Assembly: GCA_963785205.1 (NCBI GenBank)
Contig: CAWAUJ010000002.1
Coordinates: 37,436-101,435 of the forward strand
Reading direction: 5' to 3'
DNA from: an uncultured Solirubrobacterales bacterium
GTDB lineage: Bacteria; Actinomycetota; Thermoleophilia; Solirubrobacterales; Solirubrobacteraceae
Length of the DNA stretch: 64,000 bases
Part shown: positions 25,669-37,599 of the stretch, piece after piece
Layout: every line of letters begins with the position of its first letter
How positions within the stretch are numbered: position 1 is the stretch's first letter
Notes under the pieces: model-generated
The model's input: the letters and a program-made list of their open reading frames with translations, nothing else
What the model was told of the DNA's origin: nothing
Databases searched by the model: none
Translations under genes and position numbers: made by a program

Positions 25669-26844
25669 ATGATCGACGAGCGTCTGCTCACCGAACGGCT
25701 GATCGGCTATGACACCTCACGACCGGATGAGCTGGTGGCGGCGGCAGGATTCGTCAAGGGATGGCTCGAATCTCGGGAGATCGAGGTCACCGAGATCCAG
25801 CACGACGGCCTCCCGGTACTCCTGGCCGATGTGGGGCCGCCGCGGGACAACGGGGTGCCGGCCGTGATCCTGCACGGACACCTCGATGTCGTCCCTGGCC
25901 GCCCCGAGCAGTTCGAGCCGCGCCTTGAGGGCGACCGGCTCTTCGGGCGGGGTGCTTATGACATGAAGGGCGGACTGGCATCGATGATGTGTGTGCTGAA
26001 GGACGTTGAGCGCCAGGACCGGGTGGCGGTGCGATTCATGTGTGTCCCGGACGAGGAGTCCGAAGAGCTCGACCATCGGTCCACCGACACGCTGATTGGC
26101 GAGAACTCGCGAGCCGACTTCGCGATGACCGGCGAGCCAACCAACATGCACATCGGTGTCGAAGCCAAAGGCGTGCTGATCATGCGGATCGAGGTTCACG
26201 GCCGCTCGGCTCACAGCTCGACGCCGTGGCTGGGGGAGAATGCGGTGCTGAAGGCGATCGACGTCTTCCGGACGATCGAGACGTTGTCTTTCTCTCGCGA
26301 GTCCTCGGAGATGTTCGATCGCCCGTCGATCAACCTCGGTCGGATCCGGGGTGGGGACGCGCTCAACAAGGTCCCCGACGAGTGTGCGATGGCCGTCGAC
26401 ATCCGCTACCTGCCCGGACAGGACCCCGAGGAAATTCTGGCCCAGGTGCGGGCGATCCCGGGCATCGACGTAACCCGAACGTTCATCCATCCCCCGGTCG
26501 CCGTGCCCCGGAGCAATGTCTACGTTCGGGCGCTCGGTGAAGCCGTCAAGCGCTCGGTCCGGGGCGAGGCCATCAGCGTGGGCCGCGAGGGTGCGTCGGA
26601 CGCGGCTGCGTTCCTGGCCGCCGGGATCCCGGCGGTCGAGTTTGGACCGGAGGGCGACGGCCACCACGGCCCCGACGAGTGGGTCTCGGTCTCGTCGCTG
26701 GCCAGGTACCGCCGGGCGTTGGGCGACTTCATCCGGACCTTGCCGCTCCAGCTCGAGTCTGGCGGGGCCGCCGAGGGCGCGGTGGAGCCCGACCCCGTGT
26801 CGCGCGAAGCCCGCCTTCGCGCGGTCAAAGGAGGCCGGGGCTGA
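25669..26844 (+). CDS. M20-family metallopeptidase (ArgE/DapE/ACY1-like deacylase)
   Basis: ATG 25669 lies inside the long ORF 25087..26844. Motifs LHGHLDVVP, GRGAYDMKGG and PDEESEE. Confidence 0.85.
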   Translation: MIDERLLTERLIGYDTSRPDELVAAAGFVKGWLESREIEVTEIQHDGLPVLLADVGPPRDNGVPAVILHGHLDVVPGRPEQFEPRLEGDRLFGRGAYDMKGGLASMMCVLKDVERQDRVAVRFMCVPDEESEELDHRSTDTLIGENSRADFAMTGEPTNMHIGVEAKGVLIMRIEVHGRSAHSSTPWLGENAVLKAIDVFRTIETLSFSRESSEMFDRPSINLGRIRGGDALNKVPDECAMAVDIRYLPGQDPEEILAQVRAIPGIDVTRTFIHPPVAVPRSNVYVRALGEAVKRSVRGEAISVGREGASDAAAFLAAGIPAVEFGPEGDGHHGPDEWVSVSSLARYRRALGDFIRTLPLQLESGGAAEGAVEPDPVSREARLRAVKGGRG

Positions 26845-28394
26845 AGCTGCTGCCCTCCTCGCGCCGTGGGGCGCTGTGGCGGTTCGCGCTGGGATCGACG
26901 ATCGTGATCCTGTTCACCGCGGCGGCCACAGCGGTGGCCGGGCTGCTCCAGTTCAAGCAGCTCGCGGCGGACATCTCGGTGACCCCACCGATCAAGCACG
27001 CCAATGTCACGATCGCCAATCCCGGCAACCCCCAGACGCTGCTCCTGATCGGCTCCGACCATCGGGCGGGCGAGCCGTGGAAGGCGGCCAACACCGACAC
27101 GATGATGCTGGTGCGGCTCGATCCGTCATCCAGCACGATCAACCTGCTCTCGGTTCCCCGGGACCTGCAGGTGCAGATTCCCGAGGGAGGCGTGATGGCC
27201 AGCGACAAGCTGAATGCCGCCTACTCGATCGGCGGGCCAAACCTCCTGATCAGGGTGCTCCGGCGCGAGGTCTTCCCCGGCCTGCGCATCAACCACATCA
27301 TCGACGTGAACTTCGGAGGGTTCGAGGATCTGGTCAATGCCATCGGCTGCGTGTATGTCGATGTGGACCACCGCTATTACAACAACACCGCCCTCACCGA
27401 CTACTCGAGCATCAACATCCAGCCGGGGTACCAGAGGCTCTGCGGAGCGGACGCACTGGCATTCGTGCGCTTCCGCCACACCGATTCCGACATCGTCCGC
27501 AACGCTCGTCAGCAGGACTTCCTGCGCTGGGTCAAGGATCAGTTCAGCCTGAGCTACCTGGTCTCCAACCGAGACAGGCTGCTGCGCATCTTCGGCGAAC
27601 ATACGCAGACCGATGCCGACCTGCACTCGGTGGACGGCCTCATCAACCTGTTCAACCTGGTCGCGTTCTCGGATGGCCACACGATCAAGCAGATCCCGTT
27701 CCCAGCCATCTTCCTGCCCTGCGGCACCCAGCCTGGCGCGGTTCTCGGTGCAGCTTGCTACGTGACCGCCAACCACTCGGCCGAGAGACGCGCCTACGAG
27801 AGCTTCATGACGCCCACACGCTCCTCTTCGGGCAGTGGCCGCCACCATTCATCGGCCAAGCATTCCGGCCCGCAGTTCGGCTTTACGGGGATCGACAGGA
27901 TCCCGCCGCCGCCGCCGAAGGCCCCCGTAACGGCCGATCCCGCCGACGGCCGGGCGCAGGTGGCGGCGCTCCACCACGCCGGGATGCCCGTCTATTACCC
28001 GCGGATGATCGCCAACGGGTCTTCGTACTGCACGCCGGCCAACGCGAGCTGCTACGTCGAGATCCCGAGCCCAGGGTCCTATCCGCGAGCCTACCGGCTC
28101 GCTAACCGCGCTGGCCACCATTACGCCGCCTACCGGATGACGCTCGCGCTGAACCCGATTCTCGGCGAGTACTACGGCGTCCAGGGGACGACCTGGCAGA
28201 ACCCGCCGATCCTGAACAAGCCGACGTCCAGCACATGGGCGGGCGGAAAGCACCTGGAGCTTTACTACAACGGTGGGAAGCTGAGTCTCGTGGCCTGGCA
28301 CACGTCACGCGCGGCGTACTGGATCTCCAACACGCTGACCGACACGCTCTCGCCCCGGCAGATGATCGCCATCGCCGCTTCGCTCCGGCGCTGA
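26841..28394 (+). CDS. LCP (LytR-CpsA-Psr) family cell-wall glycopolymer ligase with an extra C-terminal domain
   Basis: TM helix WRFALGSTIVILFTAAATAVAGLL, then LLIGSDHR...DTMMLVRLDP...LSVPRDL (LCP core). No ATG/GTG lies near the TM. The candidate start is CTG 26841 (CTGA overlap, AAAGGAGG 6 nt upstream); the alternative is GTG 26679. Confidence 0.75.
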   Translation: MKLLPSSRRGALWRFALGSTIVILFTAAATAVAGLLQFKQLAADISVTPPIKHANVTIANPGNPQTLLLIGSDHRAGEPWKAANTDTMMLVRLDPSSSTINLLSVPRDLQVQIPEGGVMASDKLNAAYSIGGPNLLIRVLRREVFPGLRINHIIDVNFGGFEDLVNAIGCVYVDVDHRYYNNTALTDYSSINIQPGYQRLCGADALAFVRFRHTDSDIVRNARQQDFLRWVKDQFSLSYLVSNRDRLLRIFGEHTQTDADLHSVDGLINLFNLVAFSDGHTIKQIPFPAIFLPCGTQPGAVLGAACYVTANHSAERRAYESFMTPTRSSSGSGRHHSSAKHSGPQFGFTGIDRIPPPPPKAPVTADPADGRAQVAALHHAGMPVYYPRMIANGSSYCTPANASCYVEIPSPGSYPRAYRLANRAGHHYAAYRMTLALNPILGEYYGVQGTTWQNPPILNKPTSSTWAGGKHLELYYNGGKLSLVAWHTSRAAYWISNTLTDTLSPRQMIAIAASLRR

Positions 28395-28419: not shown

Positions 28420-31032
28420 ATGGCACCCGCGCGGCCACCCATAGCTGTGATCGGCACCGGCTACGTCGGCCTGGTGACGGCCGCTGGCTTCGCCCAGCTG
28501 GGCGCGGATGTGTGGTGTGTGGACATCGACTCGGAAAAGATCGCCCGGCTCGAGCGCGGAGAGGTGCCGATCTACGAACCCGGCCTGGCCGAATGCGTGG
28601 CCGCCAATCGCGAGCGGCTGCACTTCTCAGACCAGCTCGGACCGGCCCTGGAGCATGCCCGGCTGCTGTTCGTGGCCGTCGGAACCCCTCCGACCTATTC
28701 CGGCGACGCCGACCTTTCGGCGGTTCACGCCGTGGTCGATGCGATGCCGTCCTCCGACCATCACGCCCTGGTCATGAAATCGACGGTACCCGTCGGCACC
28801 GGGGCGGCCATAAGGCGGATCCTGGCCGAGCAGGGCAAGGCGAACTTTGCCTATGTGTCGTGTCCGGAGTTCCTGAAAGAGGGGGCCGCACTCGACGACT
28901 TCCTCCATCCCGATCGCATCGTGGTGGGTGATGACGGTGACTGGGCCGGTGACGCGGTGGTCGAGCTCTACGCGCCGCTCGATGCTCCGCTTATCCGGAC
29001 CGACATCGCCAGCGCCGAGATGATCAAGCTGGCCGCCAACGCCTTCCTGGCCACAAAGATCTCATTCATCAACGAGATCGCAAACGTGTGCGAGGAAACC
29101 GGCGCCGACGTCCTCGAGGTGGCCCGCGGGATGGGACTCGATCACCGGATCGGATCGCACTTCCTGCAGCCGGGGATCGGATATGGCGGCAGTTGCTTTG
29201 CCCCTGACGAGACCGTGTTGGTCCGCCATCGAGGCTGGACAAAGCTGTTGACCTTTGAGCAGCTTTGGACTCGCCTGGCGGCTGAGGAGGACGAGTTCGA
29301 GGACGGGGTGATTGAGCCTCCTCGCCTGGAGGTCCTTTCGTGGGCTCCGGGCACCGAGCGGCCCGTTTTCCTGCCCGTGATGTGCGTGACCCGGCGCGAC
29401 TACGAGGGCGAGCTCGTCGAGGTGAGGACGAAGATGGGTCGCCGGGTGCGATGCACCCCGGACCATGGATGGATCGTGGGCGACGGGCGCGGGTCGGAGG
29501 CGTCGTTCAAGCTGGCGGGGAATCTGACCACGGAAGACTGGGTGCCGCTGGCCCTCGGGCGGGCAGAGGAATGGCAGGGGACGAAGGTGGCCGCGCTGGT
29601 GGCGGCGGCGGAGGTGGCCGAGATCGCACCAGAAAAGTTGATCGTGAGGCCGAGGCGGGAGCTGATCGACGAGCTTGTCGGCTGGCCGCTGGAGGCGCGG
29701 CGAGAGGTCTTCGGCCGCTCGTCCGCCGCCGCCCGGAGCGAGTTGGAGATCAGCGACGCGTTCTGGAGGGTCGTTGGGCTGTATCTCGCTGAGGGGTGTG
29801 CGCCCGAGGACAGCAGCAGATGGCGGCTGAAGTGGTCGTTCGATCCCAGTCGTGAGCAGCATCTGGTCGACGAGGTCGTCGCGTATTGGCTGCGGCAGAA
29901 CGTTCGGGCCAGGGTCCATGACTCCGCGACCGCCCGAAACGTCGTCGTGTCATCTCGTCTCCTGAGGACGTGGTTCGTCCACGTCCTGGGCGTGGGACGC
30001 ACCTGCGACGAGCAGCGGCTCCCCGACATGATCTGGGAGCAGCCGGAGTCCGCGAAATGGGCGCTCCTGTCCGGCCTGTTCGAGGGCGATGGTTCGTGGT
30101 CGCTGGTCAACGGAGGACCGAGCGTGATCATTGAGTTGGGAACCGTGAGTGATGAGCTGGCCGACGGGGTCCTCCGCTTGCTGGGCGATCTCGGGATCGT
30201 GGCCTCCCAGCGGATCGGGCGAGCGAGCAAGTCCACGAAGGACACACATTGGATCCGCATTGCTGGTGCGGAGCAGATCGAGCGCGCGATCGAGCTGGTG
30301 CCAAAGCGCGATCGACCGGGTGTCCTGGCCTCGATCGCCCGCCAGCAGAAGCGGATCGCGCCGACCGGGTACCGCCGATTCGGGGACGGGCCGGCCTGGG
30401 TTCGAGTTGCTTCAACGCAGCGAACTGCGTTCAGGGGACCCGTGTATTCGCTCGAGGTCGTTCACGCTCACACCGTCGTCACATCGACCGGCATTACGAC
30501 GCCCCAATGCTTTCCCAAGGATGTCTCGGCCCTCAAGCAGCTGGCCGGCAACTCCGGTTACCACTTCCAGCTCCTGACCGCGGTGATCGAGGTCAACGAA
30601 CTGCAGAAACGGCGGGTCGTGGCCAAGCTCCAGAAGCACCTGGGCCCGCTCGTGGGGCGGCAGATCGCGCTGCTGGGATTGGCTTTCAAGCCGGGCACCG
30701 ACGACATGCGCGAAGCGTCATCGCTGGTGCTGGCGGCCAGGCTCCAGGCCGACGGGGCCAAGGTCCGCGCGTATGACCCGGTGGCTGAGGAGGTGGCGCG
30801 GTCGCTGCTGGTCGGGGTGGAGTTCGCGGCCGACGCGCTCGAGGCGCTGACCGGGGCCGACGCGTGCGTGGTCGTGACCGAGTGGCCGGAGTTCACGGCG
30901 ATCGACTGGACCGAGGCTCAAACGCGGATGAGTGGGACACTTGTGGTCGACGGACGCAACTGCCTGGAACCCTCCTCGGTGACGGCGGCGGGGCTCGTTT
31001 ACGAAGGCATCGGAAGGAGTGCTCCAGAATGA
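28420..31032 (+). CDS. ugd: UDP-glucose 6-dehydrogenase precursor interrupted by an intein
   Basis: N-extein IAVIGTGYVGL...EFLKEGAALDDF...GIGYGGS. C-extein CFPKDVSALKQLA...GLAFKPGTDDMREAS. The joined exteins give a protein of about 430 aa, a normal UGDH length. Confidence 0.92.
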   Translation: MAPARPPIAVIGTGYVGLVTAAGFAQLGADVWCVDIDSEKIARLERGEVPIYEPGLAECVAANRERLHFSDQLGPALEHARLLFVAVGTPPTYSGDADLSAVHAVVDAMPSSDHHALVMKSTVPVGTGAAIRRILAEQGKANFAYVSCPEFLKEGAALDDFLHPDRIVVGDDGDWAGDAVVELYAPLDAPLIRTDIASAEMIKLAANAFLATKISFINEIANVCEETGADVLEVARGMGLDHRIGSHFLQPGIGYGGSCFAPDETVLVRHRGWTKLLTFEQLWTRLAAEEDEFEDGVIEPPRLEVLSWAPGTERPVFLPVMCVTRRDYEGELVEVRTKMGRRVRCTPDHGWIVGDGRGSEASFKLAGNLTTEDWVPLALGRAEEWQGTKVAALVAAAEVAEIAPEKLIVRPRRELIDELVGWPLEARREVFGRSSAAARSELEISDAFWRVVGLYLAEGCAPEDSSRWRLKWSFDPSREQHLVDEVVAYWLRQNVRARVHDSATARNVVVSSRLLRTWFVHVLGVGRTCDEQRLPDMIWEQPESAKWALLSGLFEGDGSWSLVNGGPSVIIELGTVSDELADGVLRLLGDLGIVASQRIGRASKSTKDTHWIRIAGAEQIERAIELVPKRDRPGVLASIARQQKRIAPTGYRRFGDGPAWVRVASTQRTAFRGPVYSLEVVHAHTVVTSTGITTPQCFPKDVSALKQLAGNSGYHFQLLTAVIEVNELQKRRVVAKLQKHLGPLVGRQIALLGLAFKPGTDDMREASSLVLAARLQADGAKVRAYDPVAEEVARSLLVGVEFAADALEALTGADACVVVTEWPEFTAIDWTEAQTRMSGTLVVDGRNCLEPSSVTAAGLVYEGIGRSAPE
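29194..30507 (+). mobile_element. intein with LAGLIDADG homing-endonuclease domain (438 codons) inside ugd
   Basis: Starts at Cys259 (CFAPDETVLV, block A). Block B RCTPDHGW. Dodecapeptide motifs VGLYLAEGCA and LSGLFEGDGSW. Block F/G VYSLEVVHAHTVVTSTGITTPQ, followed by +1 Cys (the UGDH catalytic Cys). Confidence 0.85.
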
Positions 31033-32093
31033 CCATGACTGACCCGGGCAAGCTCGACCGCGAGAGCATCGCGTCGATCGACCGAAGCGGACAGCTCGAG
31101 GACATGCTCGCTTTGCCCGATCAGCTGCGAGACGCTCTGTGGCGCGTCGAGGCCGCCTCGCTGGAGCGCTACGACGCGGCCGACGGACTGATCATCGCGG
31201 GGATGGGAGGGTCGGCGATCGGCGGTGCGCTCGCCCGGGCGGCCCTCGGAGATCGGGTCTTCCGGCCGCTCCTGCTGGCCCGGGACTACGGTCTTCCCGC
31301 GTGGGCCACGCCGGAGACGGCGGTGCTCTGCTCGAGCTATTCGGGCAATACGGAGGAGACGCTGGCCGCCTACGAGGCGGCCGGGGCCGTGGGGGCCAGG
31401 CGCTTCGTGGCCACCACGGGCGGCAAGCTGGCCGAGGTCTCGCGCGCCGAGGCTGTGCCGGTGATACCGCTGCCCGGCGGATTTCAGCCCCGCGCGGCGG
31501 TCGCCTATTCGCTGGTGGTCGCGCTCGAGGTAGCGGCGCTCTGCGGAGTGGGGGATTCGCTGCATTCCGAAATTGATGTGGCCGCGGCCCACACGGAAGC
31601 GCTGATCGCGAGATGGCAGCCGGGAGGCGAGGAGGAGAACCTGGCCAAGGACCTCGCGCTGGGTCTGCACGGAACCGTGCCCCAGATCGCTGGCGCGGGA
31701 CTGACGACTCCAATCGCCTACCGCTGGAAGACCCAGCTCAACGAAAACGCCGAGATACCCGCGTTCTGGGCCGAGTTGCCAGAGCTCGACCACAACGAGG
31801 TCGTGGGGTGGGAGTCCGCCGCGGAGTTTGCCCGCTTCAGCGCCGTGTTCCTGGATGACGCTGATCTGCATCCGCGCGTCCGCCAGCGATTCGAGCTGAC
31901 TCGCGGCCTGATCGCGGCCAACGGCGCGCCCACGTTCAAGGTCGAAAGCGTTGGGGAGACGCGCACCGAGCGCGTCCTGTCGCTGGTCGTGCTGGGTGAC
32001 CTGGTGTCGCTCTATCTGGCGGTGCTCCGAGGCGTCGATCCGACGCCCGTGGCGCCGCTTGATCGGCTGAAGAGCGCCCTGGCCGGAGGCTGA
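31029..32093 (+). CDS. bifunctional phosphoglucose/phosphomannose isomerase (SIS-domain family)
   Basis: ATGA overlap with ugd. GMGGSAIGG, SYSGNTEET and WKTQLNENA motifs typical of the archaeal/actinobacterial PGI/PMI family. Confidence 0.8.
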   Translation: MTMTDPGKLDRESIASIDRSGQLEDMLALPDQLRDALWRVEAASLERYDAADGLIIAGMGGSAIGGALARAALGDRVFRPLLLARDYGLPAWATPETAVLCSSYSGNTEETLAAYEAAGAVGARRFVATTGGKLAEVSRAEAVPVIPLPGGFQPRAAVAYSLVVALEVAALCGVGDSLHSEIDVAAAHTEALIARWQPGGEEENLAKDLALGLHGTVPQIAGAGLTTPIAYRWKTQLNENAEIPAFWAELPELDHNEVVGWESAAEFARFSAVFLDDADLHPRVRQRFELTRGLIAANGAPTFKVESVGETRTERVLSLVVLGDLVSLYLAVLRGVDPTPVAPLDRLKSALAGG

Positions 32094-32125: not shown

Positions 32126-34024
32126 CTACCGCAGCTTGATCCCGCGCTGCATGTACAGGCGCCGGTCAGCTGCCGCCAGGAGCGCTTCGACGGAGTGGCC
32201 ATCACGCGGGTAGACAGACATCCCGATCGTGAGGTCCCAATCGTGGTCGAAGCCGAGGGCGGCCCGGGCCCGCGGGAGTTGGGCACGCACGCGGCGCATG
32301 ACGGCCGCCATCCCCTCGACGCCCTGCTCAGTGAGCACCATCGCCAGCTCATCACCGCCGATTCGCCCGACGAGGTCGTGAGACCGGGAAGACCGCGTGA
32401 GCAGCGAAGCCACCTCCTTGAGGAGCTCGTCGCCAGCCTGGTGGCCACGGCTGTCGTTGACAGCCTTGAGCCCCCGGACGTCGACGAATGCCAGGGCCAG
32501 TGGGTGCCCATATCGCTGCGCGCGCTCGAGTTCGCGTTGGGCCGCGGTGGTGAACCCGCGCCGATTGAGGATTCCGGTCAGGGCATCGGTCATGGCATCA
32601 GCCTTGACGGCGGCCACCTCGCCGGCCACGGCTTGGACGCTGCGGCCCCACCGCCAAGCGGCCATGCCGGCCACCCCTGCCATGGACAGAGCCAGCGCGA
32701 GGGTCAGCCACAGCCACCAGGGGATCTGCGCGATGTAGCGCTCGATTACAGGCGGGAACGTCGGGACGCCGACCGGTATCACGGTTCGGGGGGGCGGGGC
32801 GGCCGAATGGGAACCAGTCCCGCCCGCCCGGCCCGCGGCGTGACCGCGACCGCTGACGCGAGCGCCGGTGCCGTTGCCGCGTGGGCCGGTCCCGCTCCCG
32901 TGTCCGCCGGTCGCAACGGTGCCCGGCGCGAGCGGCGTCGTGATCGGGCTGCGGGTGGACGGAGCTGATCCGGTCGCCGCCCCGGTCCCCACACCCGGGA
33001 CGCCGATCCCGATCGCTCCCCCTGGGCCGGAAACGGGTGGAGTGGCGGCTCCGCCTGCGTTCGCGCGGGACGGGGTCGACGGTGGTCTCAGCGCTTTGGG
33101 ACCCGGACGCCGTCCCGTCGAGGGGCCTGACGGGGACGTCGGAGGCAAGACCTGAAGTCGAGGAGCCGTGGGCGGGGGTGGTGCAGCGCATGACGCTTCG
33201 CAGTTGATCGCGCCGGCCCCGTAGCAATGTGCGTGGCATTGGTAATCACCCAGGCCGAAGCAGTAGTCCTGACACCTGAGGTCCTGATTGCCAAAGCACC
33301 CAGCGGCGCAGTGGATGTCGCCGGCGCCGAAGCATCGATACGCACACTGGCTGTTGTTCAACGTGGCTGGGCAGTTGACGTGACAGAGGCTTACGCCGCC
33401 CGGCAGGGGTCCAGGCGGACGAACCCCGGGTGGCGGTTTGAGCACATGGGGTGGTCCCCGCCGCCCGGCGGGGCGGGGCACCTTTTCCCGCGGTCTCGGC
33501 CCCAGGCCCGGGGGCGTTGGGCGGGGTGCTCCAGCGCCGTGGCAGTGGGCCTGGCAGGTGGTATCGCCGGCGCCGTAACAGTGGTCCTGGCATGTCGCGT
33601 CGCCGGCGCCGTAGCAGTGGTCCTGGCAGGCGATGTCCTGCGCCCCGTAGCAATGGGCGTAGCAGCTGGTGTCGCCGGTCCCAACGCAGTAGTCCGTGCA
33701 CAGGCTGTTCCCAACGGCCACGGAACAGTGCTTGGGGCAGAGCCCGCGGACCGACGTGCGTCGCTCCAGGCCGCGGCGAGCCCTGCGCTTCGCCACGGCG
33801 CGAGCGTGCCGTCGTGCTCGCGCCGAGTGCCCGTGCCTGAGAGCGGCGTGGTGGTGGGCGTGATGGTGTCGGGCCCGCATGTGGTGCGATCTCGCCTCGG
33901 CCCCGCCCAAGGTGAACCAGCCCAGCGTGACGAGCACCGCGAGCACCATCGCGATGTTGAACCTGCTCCGCCTGTGAAGAGTGAGTCGTCCGCGCACTTC
34001 GGTTTGGGTGTCTCGAAGGCTCAT
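32126..34024 (-). CDS. membrane-anchored diguanylate cyclase (GGDEF) with His-rich and Cys-repeat extracytoplasmic region
   Basis: C-terminal GGDEF domain (LTGILNRRGF...FVDVRGLKAVNDSRGHQAGDELL...RIGGDELAMV, I-site-like RSHD). Two TM segments flank a loop of about 390 aa with two CxxxC-repeat modules. Confidence 0.85.
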   Translation of the reverse strand: MSLRDTQTEVRGRLTLHRRSRFNIAMVLAVLVTLGWFTLGGAEARSHHMRARHHHAHHHAALRHGHSARARRHARAVAKRRARRGLERRTSVRGLCPKHCSVAVGNSLCTDYCVGTGDTSCYAHCYGAQDIACQDHCYGAGDATCQDHCYGAGDTTCQAHCHGAGAPRPTPPGLGPRPREKVPRPAGRRGPPHVLKPPPGVRPPGPLPGGVSLCHVNCPATLNNSQCAYRCFGAGDIHCAAGCFGNQDLRCQDYCFGLGDYQCHAHCYGAGAINCEASCAAPPPPTAPRLQVLPPTSPSGPSTGRRPGPKALRPPSTPSRANAGGAATPPVSGPGGAIGIGVPGVGTGAATGSAPSTRSPITTPLAPGTVATGGHGSGTGPRGNGTGARVSGRGHAAGRAGGTGSHSAAPPPRTVIPVGVPTFPPVIERYIAQIPWWLWLTLALALSMAGVAGMAAWRWGRSVQAVAGEVAAVKADAMTDALTGILNRRGFTTAAQRELERAQRYGHPLALAFVDVRGLKAVNDSRGHQAGDELLKEVASLLTRSSRSHDLVGRIGGDELAMVLTEQGVEGMAAVMRRVRAQLPRARAALGFDHDWDLTIGMSVYPRDGHSVEALLAAADRRLYMQRGIKLR

Positions 34025-34594: not shown

Positions 34595-34660
34595 TGCGGA
34601 GCACGAGCGTTCACGCTGGGTGCGCCCGAGTCCAACCTTGACCACCGATACGGAGGAACG

Positions 34661-36157
34661 ATGAGCACGACGACCGTCAATCCCACGAGCCAGGCCTCCG
34701 GCCTTGACTTCAAGGTGGCCGATCTGAGCTTGCACGAGTTCGGGCGCCACGAAATCCGCCTGGCCGAGCACGAGATGCCAGGCCTGATGGCCACCCGACG
34801 GGAGTTCGCCGACGCCGCTCCGCTGCGCGGGGCGCGAATCACTGGCTCGCTGCACATGACGATTCAGACGGCGGTGCTGATCGAGACGCTCGTGGCCCTC
34901 GGGGCCGAGGTGCGCTGGTGCTCGTGCAACATCTTCTCCACCCAGGATCACGCCGCGGCCGCCGTTGTCGTCGGTCCTGACGGGACCCCTGAGAACCCCA
35001 CAGGCGTCTCCGTGCACGCCTGGAAGGGCGAGACGCTCGAGGAGTATTGGTGGTGCACTGAGCAAGCGCTGACCTGGCCGGGGGATCCGGATTCCCACCA
35101 GTCCGCCCCCGGCTCGCCGAACATGATCCTCGACGATGGTGGTGATGCGACGCTGCTGGTCCATCAGGGGACGGAGTACGAGCGAGCCGGATCGGTTCCG
35201 GATCCGTCGACCGCCGAAAACGAGGAGCAAAGGGTCATCCTTGAGCTCCTGACCCGGTCGTTGGCCGAGGATCCTCAGCGCTTCACCCGCGTGGGCGAGG
35301 CGATCAAGGGCGTGACCGAGGAGACCACGACGGGCGTGCATCGCCTCTACCAGTTCGCCGAGAGCGGGAAGCTTTTGTTCCCGGCCATCAACGTCAACGA
35401 TTCGGTTACGAAGTCGAAGTTCGACAACAAGTACGGGTGCCGCCATTCACTCATCGACGGGATCAACCGAGCCACAGACGTGCTGATCGGCGGAAAGCTG
35501 GCGGTCGTCTGCGGCTACGGCGACGTCGGCAAGGGATGCGCCGAGTCGCTGCGCGGGCAGCGGGCCCGGGTCGTCGTGACCGAGATCGACCCGATCTGCG
35601 CGCTCCAGGCCGCGATGGACGGCTACCAGGTGTTGCGGCTCGAGGATGTCGTCGAGACGGCTGACATCTTCGTCACGGCCACCGGCAACCGCAATGTCAT
35701 CACCGCCGAGCACATGTCGCGGATGAAGCATCAGGCGATCGTGGGCAACATCGGCCACTTCGATAACGAGATCGATATCGCGGGCTTGACGGCGACCCCG
35801 GGGGTGCGCCGCCTGCCGGTCAAGCCCCAGGTCGACGAATGGGTGTTCCAGGACGGTCACTCGGTGCTTGTCCTTTCCGAAGGCCGCCTGCTCAACCTGG
35901 GCAACGCAACCGGGCATCCGAGCTTCGTCATGTCCAACTCGTTCACCAACCAGGTGATCGCGCAGATCGAGCTCTTCGGACACGACGAGCGCTACGAGAA
36001 GCGTGTGTACACGCTGCCCAAGCACCTCGACGAAAAGGTCGCCCGACTGCATCTCGATGCTCTCGGCGCGAAGCTGACCGAGCTAACCGAGGATCAGGCG
36101 TCGTACATCGGCGTCCCACGCGAAGGCCCATTCAAGCCAGACCACTACAGGTATTGA
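34661..36157 (+). CDS. ahcY: adenosylhomocysteinase (long bacterial/eukaryotic type)
   Basis: 498 aa. [43 protein letters not shown], and C-terminus [10 protein letters not shown]. Confidence 0.95.
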
Positions 36158-36321
36158 GTCGGAGAGGCCTGGCGTCCGGGGATCGGTGATTGTGCGTCCC
36201 CGGGGTGACCCGCGAGGGCCACTGCCGGCCCTGGGTCCCCGCCTCTTGCCGGCTCGTACGGTCCCCGCGTCTGGCCGGTTCTAGCGGTTGTGGCGCCACA
36301 CAAAGCGCCCGCGGAGGGGCG

Positions 36322-37599
36322 TTGATCCCCGCCCTTCCGCCCCACGACGTCGCGGACCTCTCGCTCGCCGCCGAAGGCGGACGGAGCATCGCTTGGGCGC
36401 GGGGGCAGATGCCGGTTCTCGAGTCGGTCAGAGCGCGTTTTGCCGCTCGGAGGCCGCTGAGAGGTGTGACCGTCGCGGCCTGCCTTCACGTCACGGCGGA
36501 GACCGCGAACCTGTTACTGACGCTGAAGGCCGGTGGGGCGGAGGTCGCGCTGTGCTCGGCCAACCCGCTGTCTACGCAGGACGAGGTCGCCGCGGCCCTG
36601 GTGGCGGGCGAGGGGCTACAGGTCAGGGCGCGCCACGGCGAAAGCCCCGACGAGTACTCACAGCATCTGACCGAGACGCTCGCGCTCCACCCTCAAATCA
36701 CGATCGACGATGGGGCTGACCTGCTCATCACCGCCCACCGGGAGCCGGCGGTCGTTGAAGGATTGATCGGAGGGATGGAAGAGACGACCACGGGTCTAGT
36801 CCGGCTGCGCCGGCTCGAGCAAGACGGAGCGCTGCGATGCCCGGTGCTGGCGGTCAACGAGGCGCACGTCGAGCGAGCCCTCAATGACCGTCACGGCACT
36901 GGGCAGTCAGCCCTGGATGGGATCACCCGAGCCAGCCACGTCCTGCTGGCCGGGCACACGGTCGTCGTGCTCGGGTACGGGTGGGCCGGGAAGGGCATCG
37001 CCGAACGCGCGCGGGGCGCGGGCGCCGCAGTGATCGTGTGCGAGATCGAGCCGCTGCGCGCGCTCGAGGCCCGGATGGCCGGCTACGACGTGATGCCTGC
37101 GCTGGAGGCGGCGCGGCATGGCGACATCTTCATCACCGTGACTGGGTCGCGACGTGTGCTCGCGGCCGAGCATTTCGCGCGGATGAAGGACGGGGCGCTG
37201 CTGGCCAACGCCGGCCACTTCGACGTCGAGATCGACCTTGACGATTTGCGCGAACTGGCGGCCCACGTCGATCAGGTGAGACCGCTGATCGAGCAGTACG
37301 AGCGTGATGATGGAGTCCGCCTGAACCTGCTGGCCGGTGGGCGGGTGGTCAATCTGGCCGCCGCCGAGGGCCATCCCGCGGCCGTGATGGACGTCTCGTT
37401 CTCATTGCAAGCTCTGTGCGTCGAGGAGTTGGTCACGCACGGAGGCGAACTCGGTCCGGCCGTGCATGCCGTCCCGGTGAAGATTGATCGGGAGGTGGCG
37501 CGGCTCAAGCTCGAGGCGCTTGGAGTCGAGATTGATCAGGCCACGCCCGAGCAGGAGCAATACCGGGAATCTTGGGCACGTCCCTCTGAGAGGATTTAG
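36322..37599 (+). CDS. adenosylhomocysteinase-like protein (short archaeal/Thermotoga type), divergent active-site segment
   Basis: In-frame TTG 36322 gives the N-terminus ...HDVADLSLAAEGGRSIAWARGQMPVL. CLHVTAETA, IDDGADL, MEETTTG, GYGWAGKG and AGHFDVEI are conserved, but the TK..DN segment reads NEAHVERALNDRHGTGQS. Confidence 0.8.
   Translation: MIPALPPHDVADLSLAAEGGRSIAWARGQMPVLESVRARFAARRPLRGVTVAACLHVTAETANLLLTLKAGGAEVALCSANPLSTQDEVAAALVAGEGLQVRARHGESPDEYSQHLTETLALHPQITIDDGADLLITAHREPAVVEGLIGGMEETTTGLVRLRRLEQDGALRCPVLAVNEAHVERALNDRHGTGQSALDGITRASHVLLAGHTVVVLGYGWAGKGIAERARGAGAAVIVCEIEPLRALEARMAGYDVMPALEAARHGDIFITVTGSRRVLAAEHFARMKDGALLANAGHFDVEIDLDDLRELAAHVDQVRPLIEQYERDDGVRLNLLAGGRVVNLAAAEGHPAAVMDVSFSLQALCVEELVTHGGELGPAVHAVPVKIDREVARLKLEALGVEIDQATPEQEQYRESWARPSERI

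Follow-up and report, generated by a model that had tools for sequence, protein, structure and literature searches.

This locus raises the question of whether an enzyme can still be produced in active form when its gene is interrupted at the codon of the catalytic cysteine by an insert that ends in Pro-Gln, where inteins usually end in His-Asn. The gene, ugd, encodes a UDP-glucose 6-dehydrogenase (UGDH) and lies in the 64,000-nucleotide stretch of DNA analyzed here (the window). With high confidence, we read the insert as a genuine class-1 intein of the udp allele that is very probably able to splice; it is placed before the catalytic Cys of the chromosomal UGDH of a soil bacterium of the Solirubrobacterales (Thermoleophilia, Actinomycetota). 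The features on which the argument relies are given below in window coordinates, with intein residues numbered from Cys1.

26679..28394, + strand: upstream neighbor, LytR-CpsA-Psr (LCP) family protein (Pfam PF03816, E 5e-35)
28420..31032, + strand: ugd precursor gene, UDP-glucose 6-dehydrogenase plus intein, 870 codons and stop (ORF list)
28420..29193, + strand: N-extein, aa 1-258, ending in GIGYGGS (extein alignment; dN/dS versus relatives 0.04-0.17)
29194..30507, + strand: intein, 438 aa (aa 259-696 of the precursor), class-1 HINT with nested LAGLIDADG homing endonuclease (profiles, AF2, Foldseek)
29194..29196, + strand: Cys1, the block A nucleophile (invariant in the 28-sequence family alignment)
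29455..29466, + strand: block B T-P-D-H (residues 88-91) with Thr88 and His91 (T88, D90 and H91 invariant)
29719..29748, + strand: scar of a private 38-aa deletion (SSAAA/RSELE), linker helices/LAGLIDADG helix 1 (alignment gap of 38 columns)
29773..29802, + strand: LAGLIDADG motif 1, VGLYLAEGCA (194-203), acidic Glu200 (G195, L196, Y197 and G201 invariant; E200 in at least 90%)
30067..30099, + strand: LAGLIDADG motif 2, LSGLFEGDGSW (292-302), acidic Asp299 (G298, D299, G300 and W302 invariant)
30442..30507, + strand: blocks F and G, VYSLEVVHAHTVVTSTGITTPQ (417-438), with Ser419 at F:4, the block F His426 and Val428 (V417 and S419 invariant)
30502..30507, + strand: terminal Pro437-Gln438 (CCC CAA), usual His-Asn absent (PQ in 8 of 183 unique relatives)
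30508..30510, + strand: Cys+1 (TGC), the UGDH catalytic cysteine in CFPKD (aligns with GGSCFPKD of solved UGDHs)
30508..31032, + strand: C-extein, 174 aa and stop (dN/dS 0.085-0.22 in PQ/PQ comparisons)
31029..32093, + strand: downstream neighbor, bacterial-type phosphoglucose isomerase, bact-PGI_C (Pfam PF10432, E 1e-49)

The host gene and the exact insertion point could be established from the exteins. In the precursor, the N-terminal, central and C-terminal UDPG_MGDP_dh domains of Pfam all score above their cutoffs, and TIGR03026 reaches 421 bits (cutoff 189.8). Once joined, the exteins give a protein of 432 aa that is 82 to 91% identical to annotated UGDHs and aligns with the solved UGDHs 3gg2 (E 1e-114) and 4a7p without a gap across GYGGSCFPKDV. 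Furthermore, the syntenic orthologs L081 and L082, also of 432 aa and 88 to 91% identical, have an uninterrupted GGSCFPKD and are empty at the same codon boundary, which in L082 reads GGCTACGGTGGCTCC followed directly by TGCTTTCCAAAAGAT. At the DNA level, the site is GGC GGC TCG/TGT TTT CCC in the orthologs without the intein and GGC GGC AGT/(1314 nt)/TGC TTT CCC in the window. The initial annotation, which saw in the 870-aa frame a UGDH split by 438 codons between GGS and C, is thus exact on both the ortholog DNA and the alignment with solved UGDHs. Boundaries shifted by the "CF" found at both junctions were considered and excluded, since only the given register places a nucleophile at both 1 and +1, and the ambiguity is removed by relatives whose intein starts with CL.

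The Cys-x-x-x-Asp motif in GGxCxxKD is present in the window UGDH, and its spacing in CFPKD is that of the human catalytic pair Cys276/Asp280 (PMC3265891). With the insert directly before CFPKD, the +1 nucleophile is the catalytic Cys of the enzyme, as had been claimed, and it follows that no UGDH activity is possible before splicing. The proposed gene order LCP, ugd, PGI was likewise borne out by the Pfam matches to PF03816 and PF10432. The pgi start overlaps the ugd stop (ATGA), a 4-nt overlap also found in L081 and L082, where the LCP gene holds the same position. A tblastn search of the 64-kb window gave no related intein and no second UGDH, which, if free of an intein, would relax selection on the interrupted gene.

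All the motifs quoted in the initial annotation, from Cys1 and TPDH through the two LAGLIDADG motifs to the block F/G end and Pro-Gln, were found in place. The intein starts with CFAPDE and ends with ITTPQ (CCC CAA), followed by the TGC of CFPKDV. In the 28-sequence family alignment from which residue conservation was read, no substitution occurs at C1, T88, H91, S419, D299 or the +1 Cys, and the +1 residue is Cys at every locatable C-junction among the relatives. The profile searches that had been proposed gave scores above the curated cutoffs for TIGR01445 intein_Nterm (37.2 bits, cutoff 24.5) and for LAGLIDADG_3 (PF14528; 51.5 bits, cutoff 22.5; residues 290-368), and with these scores a chance pattern is ruled out. 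Pfam Intein_splicing remained below its cutoff (27.5 versus 35.8), and the C-terminal profile TIGR01443 gave no match to the native sequence. When PQ was changed to HN in silico, TIGR01443 matched the block F/G segment with 22.4 bits (cutoff 15.6); as judged by this restored match, the C-terminal region is canonical apart from PQ. The AF2 model of the intein (pLDDT 88.7, pTM 0.87) retrieved with Foldseek PI-PkoII 2cw7 (E 3e-23), TliVMA 7qsu, PI-PfuI 1dq3 and PI-SceI, as well as I-DmoI and I-Tsp061I. Class-1 inteins typically carry His-Asn at G:6 and G:7, and here these positions are Pro437-Gln438; the class assignment stands despite this, because functional inteins are known with Gln at G:7 and with residues other than His at G:6 (PMC4031507).

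The terminus acquires a different meaning when the whole family is considered. This ugd intein occurs in no fewer than 242 genomes of the Solirubrobacterales/Thermoleophilia, and among 183 unique relatives the C-terminal residue is Gln in 27, the terminal pair is Pro-Gln in 8 and the penultimate His is kept in 79, so that loss of this His is the rule in the family and not the exception. The terminal dipeptides within the clade comprise HN, SN, GN, AN, KN, PQ, AQ, HQ, FQ, SQ and LQ, with Pro at G:6 occurring strictly with Gln at G:7. In particular, PQ recurs in at least seven species-level lineages of the very large Thermoleophilia intein family besides the window's own; L009, L011, L013, L014, L024, L034 and P0020, all from independent assemblies, end in PQ. 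A sequencing or assembly error behind PQ could be excluded, given eight independent sequences and the use of both CAA and CAG codons. The unusual terminus singled out in the initial annotation is therefore real, but it is no singular oddity, since other lineages share it and the last two residues are hypervariable.

In a column-association test without phylogenetic correction, the Val/Phe position 428 correlates with a terminal Gln, and Pro437 is seen solely before Gln. An association signal at position 283, in the endonuclease domain, is probably a mere clade marker. Parsimony on NJ trees counts 8 to 14 switches between Asn and Gln, but the underlying data are saturated, the trees have a star-like shape and recombination between intein alleles is not taken into account, so that the exact number is unreliable. 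The nearest-neighbor check, in which 17 of the 27 Gln-ending inteins have an Asn-ending one as closest relative, is more robust, and several independent switches appear supported. The allele is thus common in databases, while experimental characterization was not found: our search of mostly open-access literature for the biochemistry of the udp allele gave catalog-type mentions only, and a search for Solirubrobacter and intein gave nothing.

Whether such an intein splices can be approached through selection on the flanking protein. Complete open precursors were found at all 79 parsable genome loci, and dN/dS is 0.04 to 0.22 for exteins and 0.13 to 0.31 for inteins, PQ/PQ pairs included, these values being rough because many pairs approach saturation, with dS of about 1 or above. 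From purifying selection on exteins that lie beside PQ inteins, we infer that the PQ intein probably splices, through cyclization of its Gln. Experimentally, both Gln-terminated inteins and inteins without His at G:6 do splice (PMC4031507, PMC8175363). Three commonly assisting residues are gone from the window copy, which has no His at G:6, no Asn at G:7 and Ser in place of Asp at F:4; this was counted against competence, as was the private 38-aa deletion, taken as some decay of this copy.

On the basis of the conserved residues and of established intein chemistry, it is possible to hypothesize the following sequence of events. Cys1, assisted by Thr88 and His91 of block B, would form the thioester at the N-junction, and the N-extein would then pass to Cys+1, the catalytic Cys of the enzyme, giving a branched intermediate. 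Gln438 would cyclize to an aminoglutarimide and free the intein without a penultimate His, presumably helped by the block F His426 on the Ser-F:4 background, as in the Gln-terminated PolII intein of Pyrococcus abyssi (Pab). Finally, an S-to-N shift would restore GGS-CFPKD and yield active UGDH.

The opposite view, that the insert is degenerate, with C-terminal cleavage dead, ugd reduced to a pseudogene or a dead precursor and UDP-GlcA obtained from elsewhere or absent, could invoke the silence of TIGR01443 on the native sequence, the Intein_splicing score below cutoff (27.5 versus 35.8) and the private 38-aa deletion. It is nevertheless highly improbable: the 870-codon frame is intact, with a host-like GC3 of 0.81 to 0.86 throughout, all the remaining catalytic residues are in place, and the translationally coupled ATGA overlap with pgi is preserved. 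Moreover, PQ occurs in at least eight independent sequences with a C-extein dN/dS of 0.085 to 0.22, and Gln termini have been proven competent in other inteins (PMC4031507). A different proposal accepts splicing and makes it a switch, in which Pro-Gln, possibly together with a Cys1-Cys+1 disulfide, slows UGDH maturation or ties it to redox state or temperature, and the intein would then gate the supply of UDP-glucuronate for envelope glycopolymers of the neighboring LCP-linked pathway. The PolII inteins of Pab and Methanoculleus marisnigri (Mma), with a C-terminal Gln, splice slowly; in the former, changing Gln to Asn makes C-terminal cleavage 20-fold faster and activity is under the control of a disulfide between Cys1 and Cys+1 (PMC4031507, PMC8175363). 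The window intein likewise combines Cys1 and Cys+1 with a Ser at F:4, and its place at the catalytic Cys leaves no activity before splicing. However, close relatives, 88 to 91% identical, lack the intein at this syntenic locus, which indicates that the intein is dispensable for regulation of the pathway. In addition, the terminal dipeptide varies freely (HN, SN, GN, AN, PQ, AQ, HQ), in a way that resembles drift among acceptable solutions and not tuning, and the Gln of the Chilo iridescent virus (CIV) RNR intein is efficient (PMC4031507). We regard both the slow or conditional maturation and the gating of UDP-glucuronate as unlikely, and the suggestion in the initial annotation that the intein may splice slowly or conditionally, which draws on analogy, is speculative, the intein-free alleles arguing against an indispensable regulatory role. 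Similarly doubtful is the broader proposal that the Thermoleophilia udp branch has an unusually plastic C-terminal chemistry, with frequent Asn/Gln exchange, a dispensable penultimate His and a Pro accepted solely before Gln on a Ser-F:4/Val-428 background. In this scheme Gln would cyclize to aminoglutarimide by a His-independent, possibly Pro-assisted route, which could set the rate of UGDH maturation, the +1 residue being the catalytic Cys.

With splicing competence as the preferred reading, the mobility of the element can be considered separately. The LAGLIDADG endonuclease, with Glu200 and Asp299, would be the mobility module, cutting intein-free ugd alleles at GGS/CFPKD. The ugd intein is polymorphic, being present or absent at orthologous syntenic loci, and its dS is below that of the exteins in some pairs and above it in others; this polymorphism and the decoupled divergence of intein and exteins are consistent with ongoing or recent homing in the clade. 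Foreign composition, considered as a mark of recent arrival, is uninformative, the GC and GC3 of the intein being equal to those of the exteins, and a scan of viral contigs with the family alignment gave no relative and hence no sign of a phage vector. As for the window copy itself, splicing may be intact while its endonuclease is inactive or attenuated, the element, late in the homing cycle, being carried along in fixed form and no longer mobile; we consider this possible, if tentative, and the same holds for the corollary that the intein is retained solely on account of the damage that an imprecise deletion would do to the catalytic site. The 38-column gap is unique to this copy in the alignment and takes out a confidently folded module before LAGLIDADG helix 1: in the full-length relative P0002 (intein residues ~181-218), the missing region consists of two helices and a strand with pLDDT 88 to 93, whereas what is left in the window intein is a low-confidence linker, residues 176-180, the sole segment with pLDDT below 50 in the AF2 model. 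Independent and different deletions in the same region of at least six other lineages suggest recurrent erosion. On the other hand, the two LAGLIDADG motifs are undamaged and retain their acidic residues, omega of the endonuclease core is 0.10 to 0.19 in the comparisons involving the window, and the deleted module may be dispensable. Having lost this 38-aa module near its core, the window endonuclease may thus be attenuated.

For annotation, these results mean that the gene is an intein-containing UGDH rather than a fusion or a pseudogene. The window intein is a modest curiosity within a known family and not a new type of element, and the understanding of what inteins are is unchanged. The Thermoleophilia ugd locus is nonetheless a clean and highly populated case in which an intein has inserted at the catalytic nucleophile of its host protein, and natural alleles exist both with and without it. 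The variability of the terminal residues within the clade amounts to a natural experiment of mild interest, in which a single scaffold carries a series of substitutions at G:6 and G:7, with strict coupling of Pro to Gln. This dipeptide series could reveal what makes Gln cyclization efficient without a penultimate His, an insight of use in the design of inteins that are slow or tunable.

Among known systems, the closest is the "udp" (UDP GD) allele, to which, judging from site and homology, the window intein belongs. The allele has been catalogued in Methanocaldococcus jannaschii, as the initial annotation stated, in other Methanococcales, in Halobacteria and in the bacteria Dictyoglomus thermophilum and Fervidibacteria (PMC4071816, PMC2874743); the window allele is therefore bacterial but not the first of its kind (PMC4071816). 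UGDH host, GYGGS/C...CFPKD site and HINT plus LAGLIDADG architecture are shared, and homology was measured on the copy of Methanothermococcus sp. Ax23 (P0280, WP_421077467), which has the identical site (GYGGS/CFHPDE...LIHN/CFPKDV), likewise a Ser at F:4 and 27% identity to the window intein by BLASTP (E 1e-50, residues 1-434). Different from these inteins, the window copy resides in a mesophile-type, high-GC Thermoleophilia bacterium, carries the private 38-aa deletion and ends in Pro-Gln, whereas the sampled distant relatives at the same site almost all end in His-Asn.

With respect to the terminus, the Pab PolII intein named as a Gln-terminated precedent is indeed known and splices (PMC4031507, PMC8175363). 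It shares with the PolII inteins of P. horikoshii and M. marisnigri, and with the window intein, the class-1 character, Cys1, Cys+1, a cyclizing Gln, Ser at F:4 and the block F His (PMC8175363, PMC4031507), and the PolII intein model NCBIfam PRK14715 shows weak local profile similarity (E 1e-11). The PolII inteins are mini-inteins without endonuclease that keep the penultimate His, in a DNA polymerase host of (hyper)thermophilic archaea, while the window intein has a penultimate Pro and a LAGLIDADG domain. Judged on its residues, membership in the Pab PolII type fails at G:6 (Pro, not His) despite Gln438, Ser419 and His426, although by analogy the window intein may work like that type. The CIV RNR intein, from a viral host and another extein and likened here by terminus and not by homology, has a native Gln at G:7 that is efficient and better than Asn (PMC4031507), so that Gln need not imply slow splicing. 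Inteins without a penultimate His, such as Ssp DnaE, make up ~5% of functional inteins, and splicing proceeds in them with another residue at G:6 (PMC4031507); uncommon elsewhere, they prevail in the window family, where only 79 of 183 members keep this His and Pro at G:6 goes strictly with Gln at G:7. Finally, PI-PkoII, the best PDB sequence match (E 2.6e-11), PI-PfuI, TliVMA and PI-SceI have the same bipartite fold (Foldseek E 3e-23 to 1e-15, TM up to 0.70), but at 13 to 18% identity, in other exteins and with canonical termini.

The intein lies within the gene for UDP-glucose 6-dehydrogenase (UGDH), and the features of the window considered here are as follows.

28420-31032, plus strand: ugd, one 870-aa ORF encoding the UGDH precursor
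29194-30507, plus strand: intein, exactly 438 codons
29719-29748, plus strand: deletion scar, intein residues 176 to 185
30502-30507, plus strand: CCC CAA, the intein-terminal Pro-Gln
31029-31032: ATGA, overlap of the ugd stop and the pgi start
32126-34024, minus strand: GGDEF diguanylate cyclase
34595-36154 and 36190-37596, plus strand: tandem S-adenosyl-L-homocysteine hydrolase (AdoHcyase) homologues

In the ORF translation, residue 259 is the first of CFAPDE and residue 697 the first of CFPKDV, and the last intein codons, ACG ACG CCC CAA (T-T-P-Q), are followed by TGC for the +1 Cys, the first C-extein residue. Pfam recognizes three UDPG_MGDP_dh domains, the central one being split by the insert, and the precursor matches NCBIfam TIGR03026 (nucleotide-sugar dehydrogenase) with 421 bits (cutoff, 190). 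Once spliced in silico, the 432-aa UGDH aligns with the solved UGDHs 3gg2 and 4a7p (E of about 1e-114), with GYGGSCFPKDV ungapped across the junction. In C-F-P-K-D, which follows the insert, Cys and Asp have the Cys-x-x-x-Asp spacing that human UGDH shows between Cys276, its catalytic nucleophile (Cys260 in S. pyogenes), and Asp280; the covalent role of this nucleophile is well documented (PMC3265891). The +1 Cys would be the UGDH catalytic nucleophile, an assignment that rests on the conserved motif and on the solved bacterial homologues. The insert coordinates and motifs of the initial annotation were all found in place, with no correction needed, and the boundary that it set at GGS/C (slashes mark the insertion site) and the catalytic role that it gave to the +1 Cys agree with these comparisons.

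The best 120 matches of the spliced UGDH in a collection of 5.8 billion proteins are all intein-free UGDHs of 419 to 441 aa (most of 428 to 432), 82 to 91% identical and mostly labeled Solirubrobacteraceae. Two syntenic intein-free loci, L081 and L082 (88 and 91% identical, respectively), share with the window the gene order M20 peptidase, LCP, UGDH, bact-PGI, GGDEF (minus strand), MerR, and AdoHcyase. Their empty site reads GGC GGC TCG/TGT TTT CCC AAA, and the filled site of the window reads GGC GGC AGT/1314 nt/TGC TTT CCC AAG; at a single orthologous locus, the intein is cleanly polymorphic between presence and absence. Since the 4-nt ATGA overlap is identical in L081 and L082, the operon structure is undisturbed by the intein, the overlap itself implying a putative translational coupling of ugd and pgi. 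Further downstream, the GGDEF protein bears long N-terminal His-rich and Cys-rich repeats (e.g., CYGAGDxxCQxHC, repeated), its L081 orthologue showing a faint match to PF27846 (tSAM_targ_Cxxx_rpt), and the second AdoHcyase homologue is more divergent than the first (E of 5e-49 versus 3e-147).

On the insert, NCBIfam intein_Nterm (37.2 bits; cutoff, 24.5) and Pfam LAGLIDADG_3 (51.5 bits; cutoff, 22.5) score above their cutoffs, Pfam Intein_splicing remains below threshold (27.5 versus 35.8), and the NCBIfam search gave no match of the native insert to intein_Cterm (TIGR01443). In a control, the last 58 residues of a relative ending in His-Asn (HN), the usual pair, match TIGR01443 with 16.3 bits (cutoff, 15.6); the native C-terminal segment of the window does not, and the same segment matches at 22.4 bits after in silico replacement of Pro-Gln (PQ) with HN. 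It follows that the C-terminal splicing region is canonical save for its last two residues. The AlphaFold2 model of the intein, built from a 28-sequence family alignment (pLDDT, 88.7; pTM, 0.87), has as its closest PDB structures PI-PkoII (E of 3e-23), which is also the top PDB sequence match, then TliVMA, PI-PfuI, and PI-SceI, and then free-standing LAGLIDADG enzymes. The same alignment is invariant at C1, at T88, D90, and H91 (block B), and at V417 and S419 (block F) in the splicing blocks, and at G195-L-Y197, G201, G298-D299-G300, and W302 in the LAGLIDADG motifs. Profiles, fold, and boundaries bear out the substance of the initial annotation: this is a true intein, with a homing endonuclease and a noncanonical Pro-Gln end, placed at the UGDH catalytic Cys.

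The intein query retrieved 635 protein clusters at an E of ≤1e-3, the best 120 of which consist, with few exceptions, of UGDH fragments or precursors from Solirubrobacteraceae, Thermoleophilaceae, and Gaiellales MAGs, with 44 to 75% identity. With each GTDB species represented by one genome, a scan found 242 genomes that encode a relative, the best 80 being labeled nearly all as Solirubrobacterales, Thermoleophilaceae, Actinomycetes, or Actinomycetota MAGs; with a highest identity of 73%, this species-level scan did not include the window's own species at high identity. All 79 parsable genome loci hold a complete open precursor. One of them, L015 (CAZZYU010000004.1), is a typical Solirubrobacterales ugd-intein locus with 68% intein identity to the window, and its MAG label in the public record, "Acetobacteraceae bacterium," probably reflects a binning or labeling error. 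Among 1.84 billion cluster representatives, a profile search picked up numerous more distant precursors, some 900 aa long, that have an intein at the identical place (GYGGS/C...HN/CFPKD); one is a named Methanothermococcus protein that matches the window intein along its full length (27% identity; E of 1e-50). The UDP GD, or udp, intein has its classical hosts in Methanococcales and is also known from Halobacteria, Dictyoglomus, and Fervidibacteria (PMC4071816; PMC2874743). Thus, the window intein is a new, uncharacterized member of the known udp allele, which is very common in Thermoleophilia, the bacterial class of the window; same-site homologues are already numerous in the databases. The profile search also returned homologous inteins in paralogous sugar-nucleotide dehydrogenases, at the corresponding cysteine (GxGGH/C...HN/CIPxDP), and in an unrelated, putatively PurL-like protein (YGN/C...HN/CxGVPTxGGE), with profile E values of 1e-36 to 1e-75 for both groups (a first list of non-UGDH carrier proteins comprises P0268, P0314, P0341, P0345, P0346, P0354, P0364, P0373, P0376, P0379, P0381, and P0386; a second, P0303, P0306, P0323, P0353, and P0385).

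The most interesting part of the finding is the family-level variation of the last two intein residues, G:6 and G:7. The Pro-Gln end noted by the initial annotation in place of His-Asn is present, and it is a recurrent variant in the Thermoleophilia family rather than a singular anomaly, being shared by loci L009, L011, L013, L014, L024, and L034 and by protein P0020. Of 110 protein relatives with a visible C-junction, 94 have a terminal Asn and 16 a terminal Gln, and only 59 keep the penultimate His; the 79 genome loci end in SN (35), HN (22), PQ (6), AN (5), GN (3), NN (2), and, once each, AQ, LQ, SQ, HQ, LN, and RN, with Gln encoded six times by CAG and four times by CAA. Pooling and de-duplication gave 183 relatives (156 Asn, 27 Gln), with eight PQ ends and no PN end. 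Across Thermoleophilia, udp inteins end in HN, SN, GN, AN, NN, KN, DN, QN, RN, LN, PQ, AQ, HQ, FQ, SQ, or LQ. Gln-enders are scattered, the most similar sequence ending in Asn for 17 of the 27, and parsimony on rough neighbor-joining trees gives 8 to 14 Asn/Gln changes; L004, the nearest relative of the window in both intein and extein trees, ends in HN. Outside Thermoleophilia, HN terminates nearly every one of the more distant same-site inteins; this end is probably ancestral, and terminal plasticity is a feature of the Thermoleophilia clade.

In associations that ignore phylogeny, Gln is the only terminal residue preceded by Pro at G:6 (8/27 Gln-enders versus 0/156 Asn-enders), and the residue after the block F His-Thr (residue 428) is Val in 25/27 Gln-enders and Phe in 0/27, versus Phe in 84/156 Asn-enders. 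With its strict Pro-Gln coupling, the hypervariable pair G:6 and G:7 is a series of natural mutants for step three of protein splicing. Codons for Asn (AAY) and for Gln (CAR) differ at two positions, and neither Lys nor His, the one-step intermediates, terminates any sampled sequence. L015 (AN) and L017 (AQ) have AAC and CAG, respectively, although their inteins differ by a dN of only 0.04 and a dS of 0.28; L018 versus L020 was a second comparison. Possible routes are double substitutions, passage through Asp and Glu, and recombination among intein alleles.

Filled and empty alleles coexist among hosts with 82 to 91% identical exteins. The intein dS is lower than that of the exteins between L015 and L017 (0.28 versus 0.44 to 0.53) and about twice as high between L009 and L014 (1.17 versus 0.50 to 0.57), a decoupling in both directions that is consistent with homing and allele replacement, or with horizontal intein transfer, among Solirubrobacterales; a scan of viral contigs found no relatives. 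The window intein carries a private 38-aa deletion directly upstream of LAGLIDADG helix 1, as seen against L004, L009, L002, L015, L033, L036, and L069, and residues 176 to 180 are the sole low-confidence segment of its model. In the model of a full-length relative, the missing stretch is folded with confidence into two short helices and a strand (pLDDT, 88 to 93). Different, independent deletions affect this region in at least six further lineages; judging from these sequences, an accessory module, which may function in DNA binding, has evidently been lost repeatedly. Given its deletion beside helix 1, the endonuclease of the window may be weakened.

The precursor frame is intact, and the intein GC3 matches that of the host gene. 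By the Nei-Gojobori method, with many dS values of about 1 or higher and each pairwise omega averaging two lineages, dN/dS is 0.04 to 0.17 for N-exteins, 0.085 to 0.26 for C-exteins, and 0.13 to 0.31 for inteins, the endonuclease core (0.10 to 0.19) being as constrained as the splicing parts. In PQ/PQ comparisons, the C-extein value is 0.085 to 0.135 among L009, L014, and L034 and 0.18 to 0.22 for the window versus L009 or L013. Such constraint would not persist in a C-extein that can never be ligated to the N-extein at the catalytic center; the intact frame, the operon overlap, and selection on the exteins are indirect evidence consistent with a functional PQ intein. No second UGDH was found within the 64-kb window, although these genomes may carry one elsewhere. 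A slow or conditional splicing of the UGDH intein is possible by analogy but speculative, and the existence of empty alleles at this locus speaks against any regulatory role being obligatory.

Experimental precedents are known: some 5% of functional inteins do without His at G:6, and inteins with Gln at G:7 splice slowly in Pab and Mma PolII and efficiently in CIV RNR (PMC4031507). Asp is the commonest residue at position 4 of block F (PMC4031507); the window intein has Ser419 there, like the Gln-terminated Pab PolII intein (PMC8175363) and the Methanothermococcus UGDH intein.
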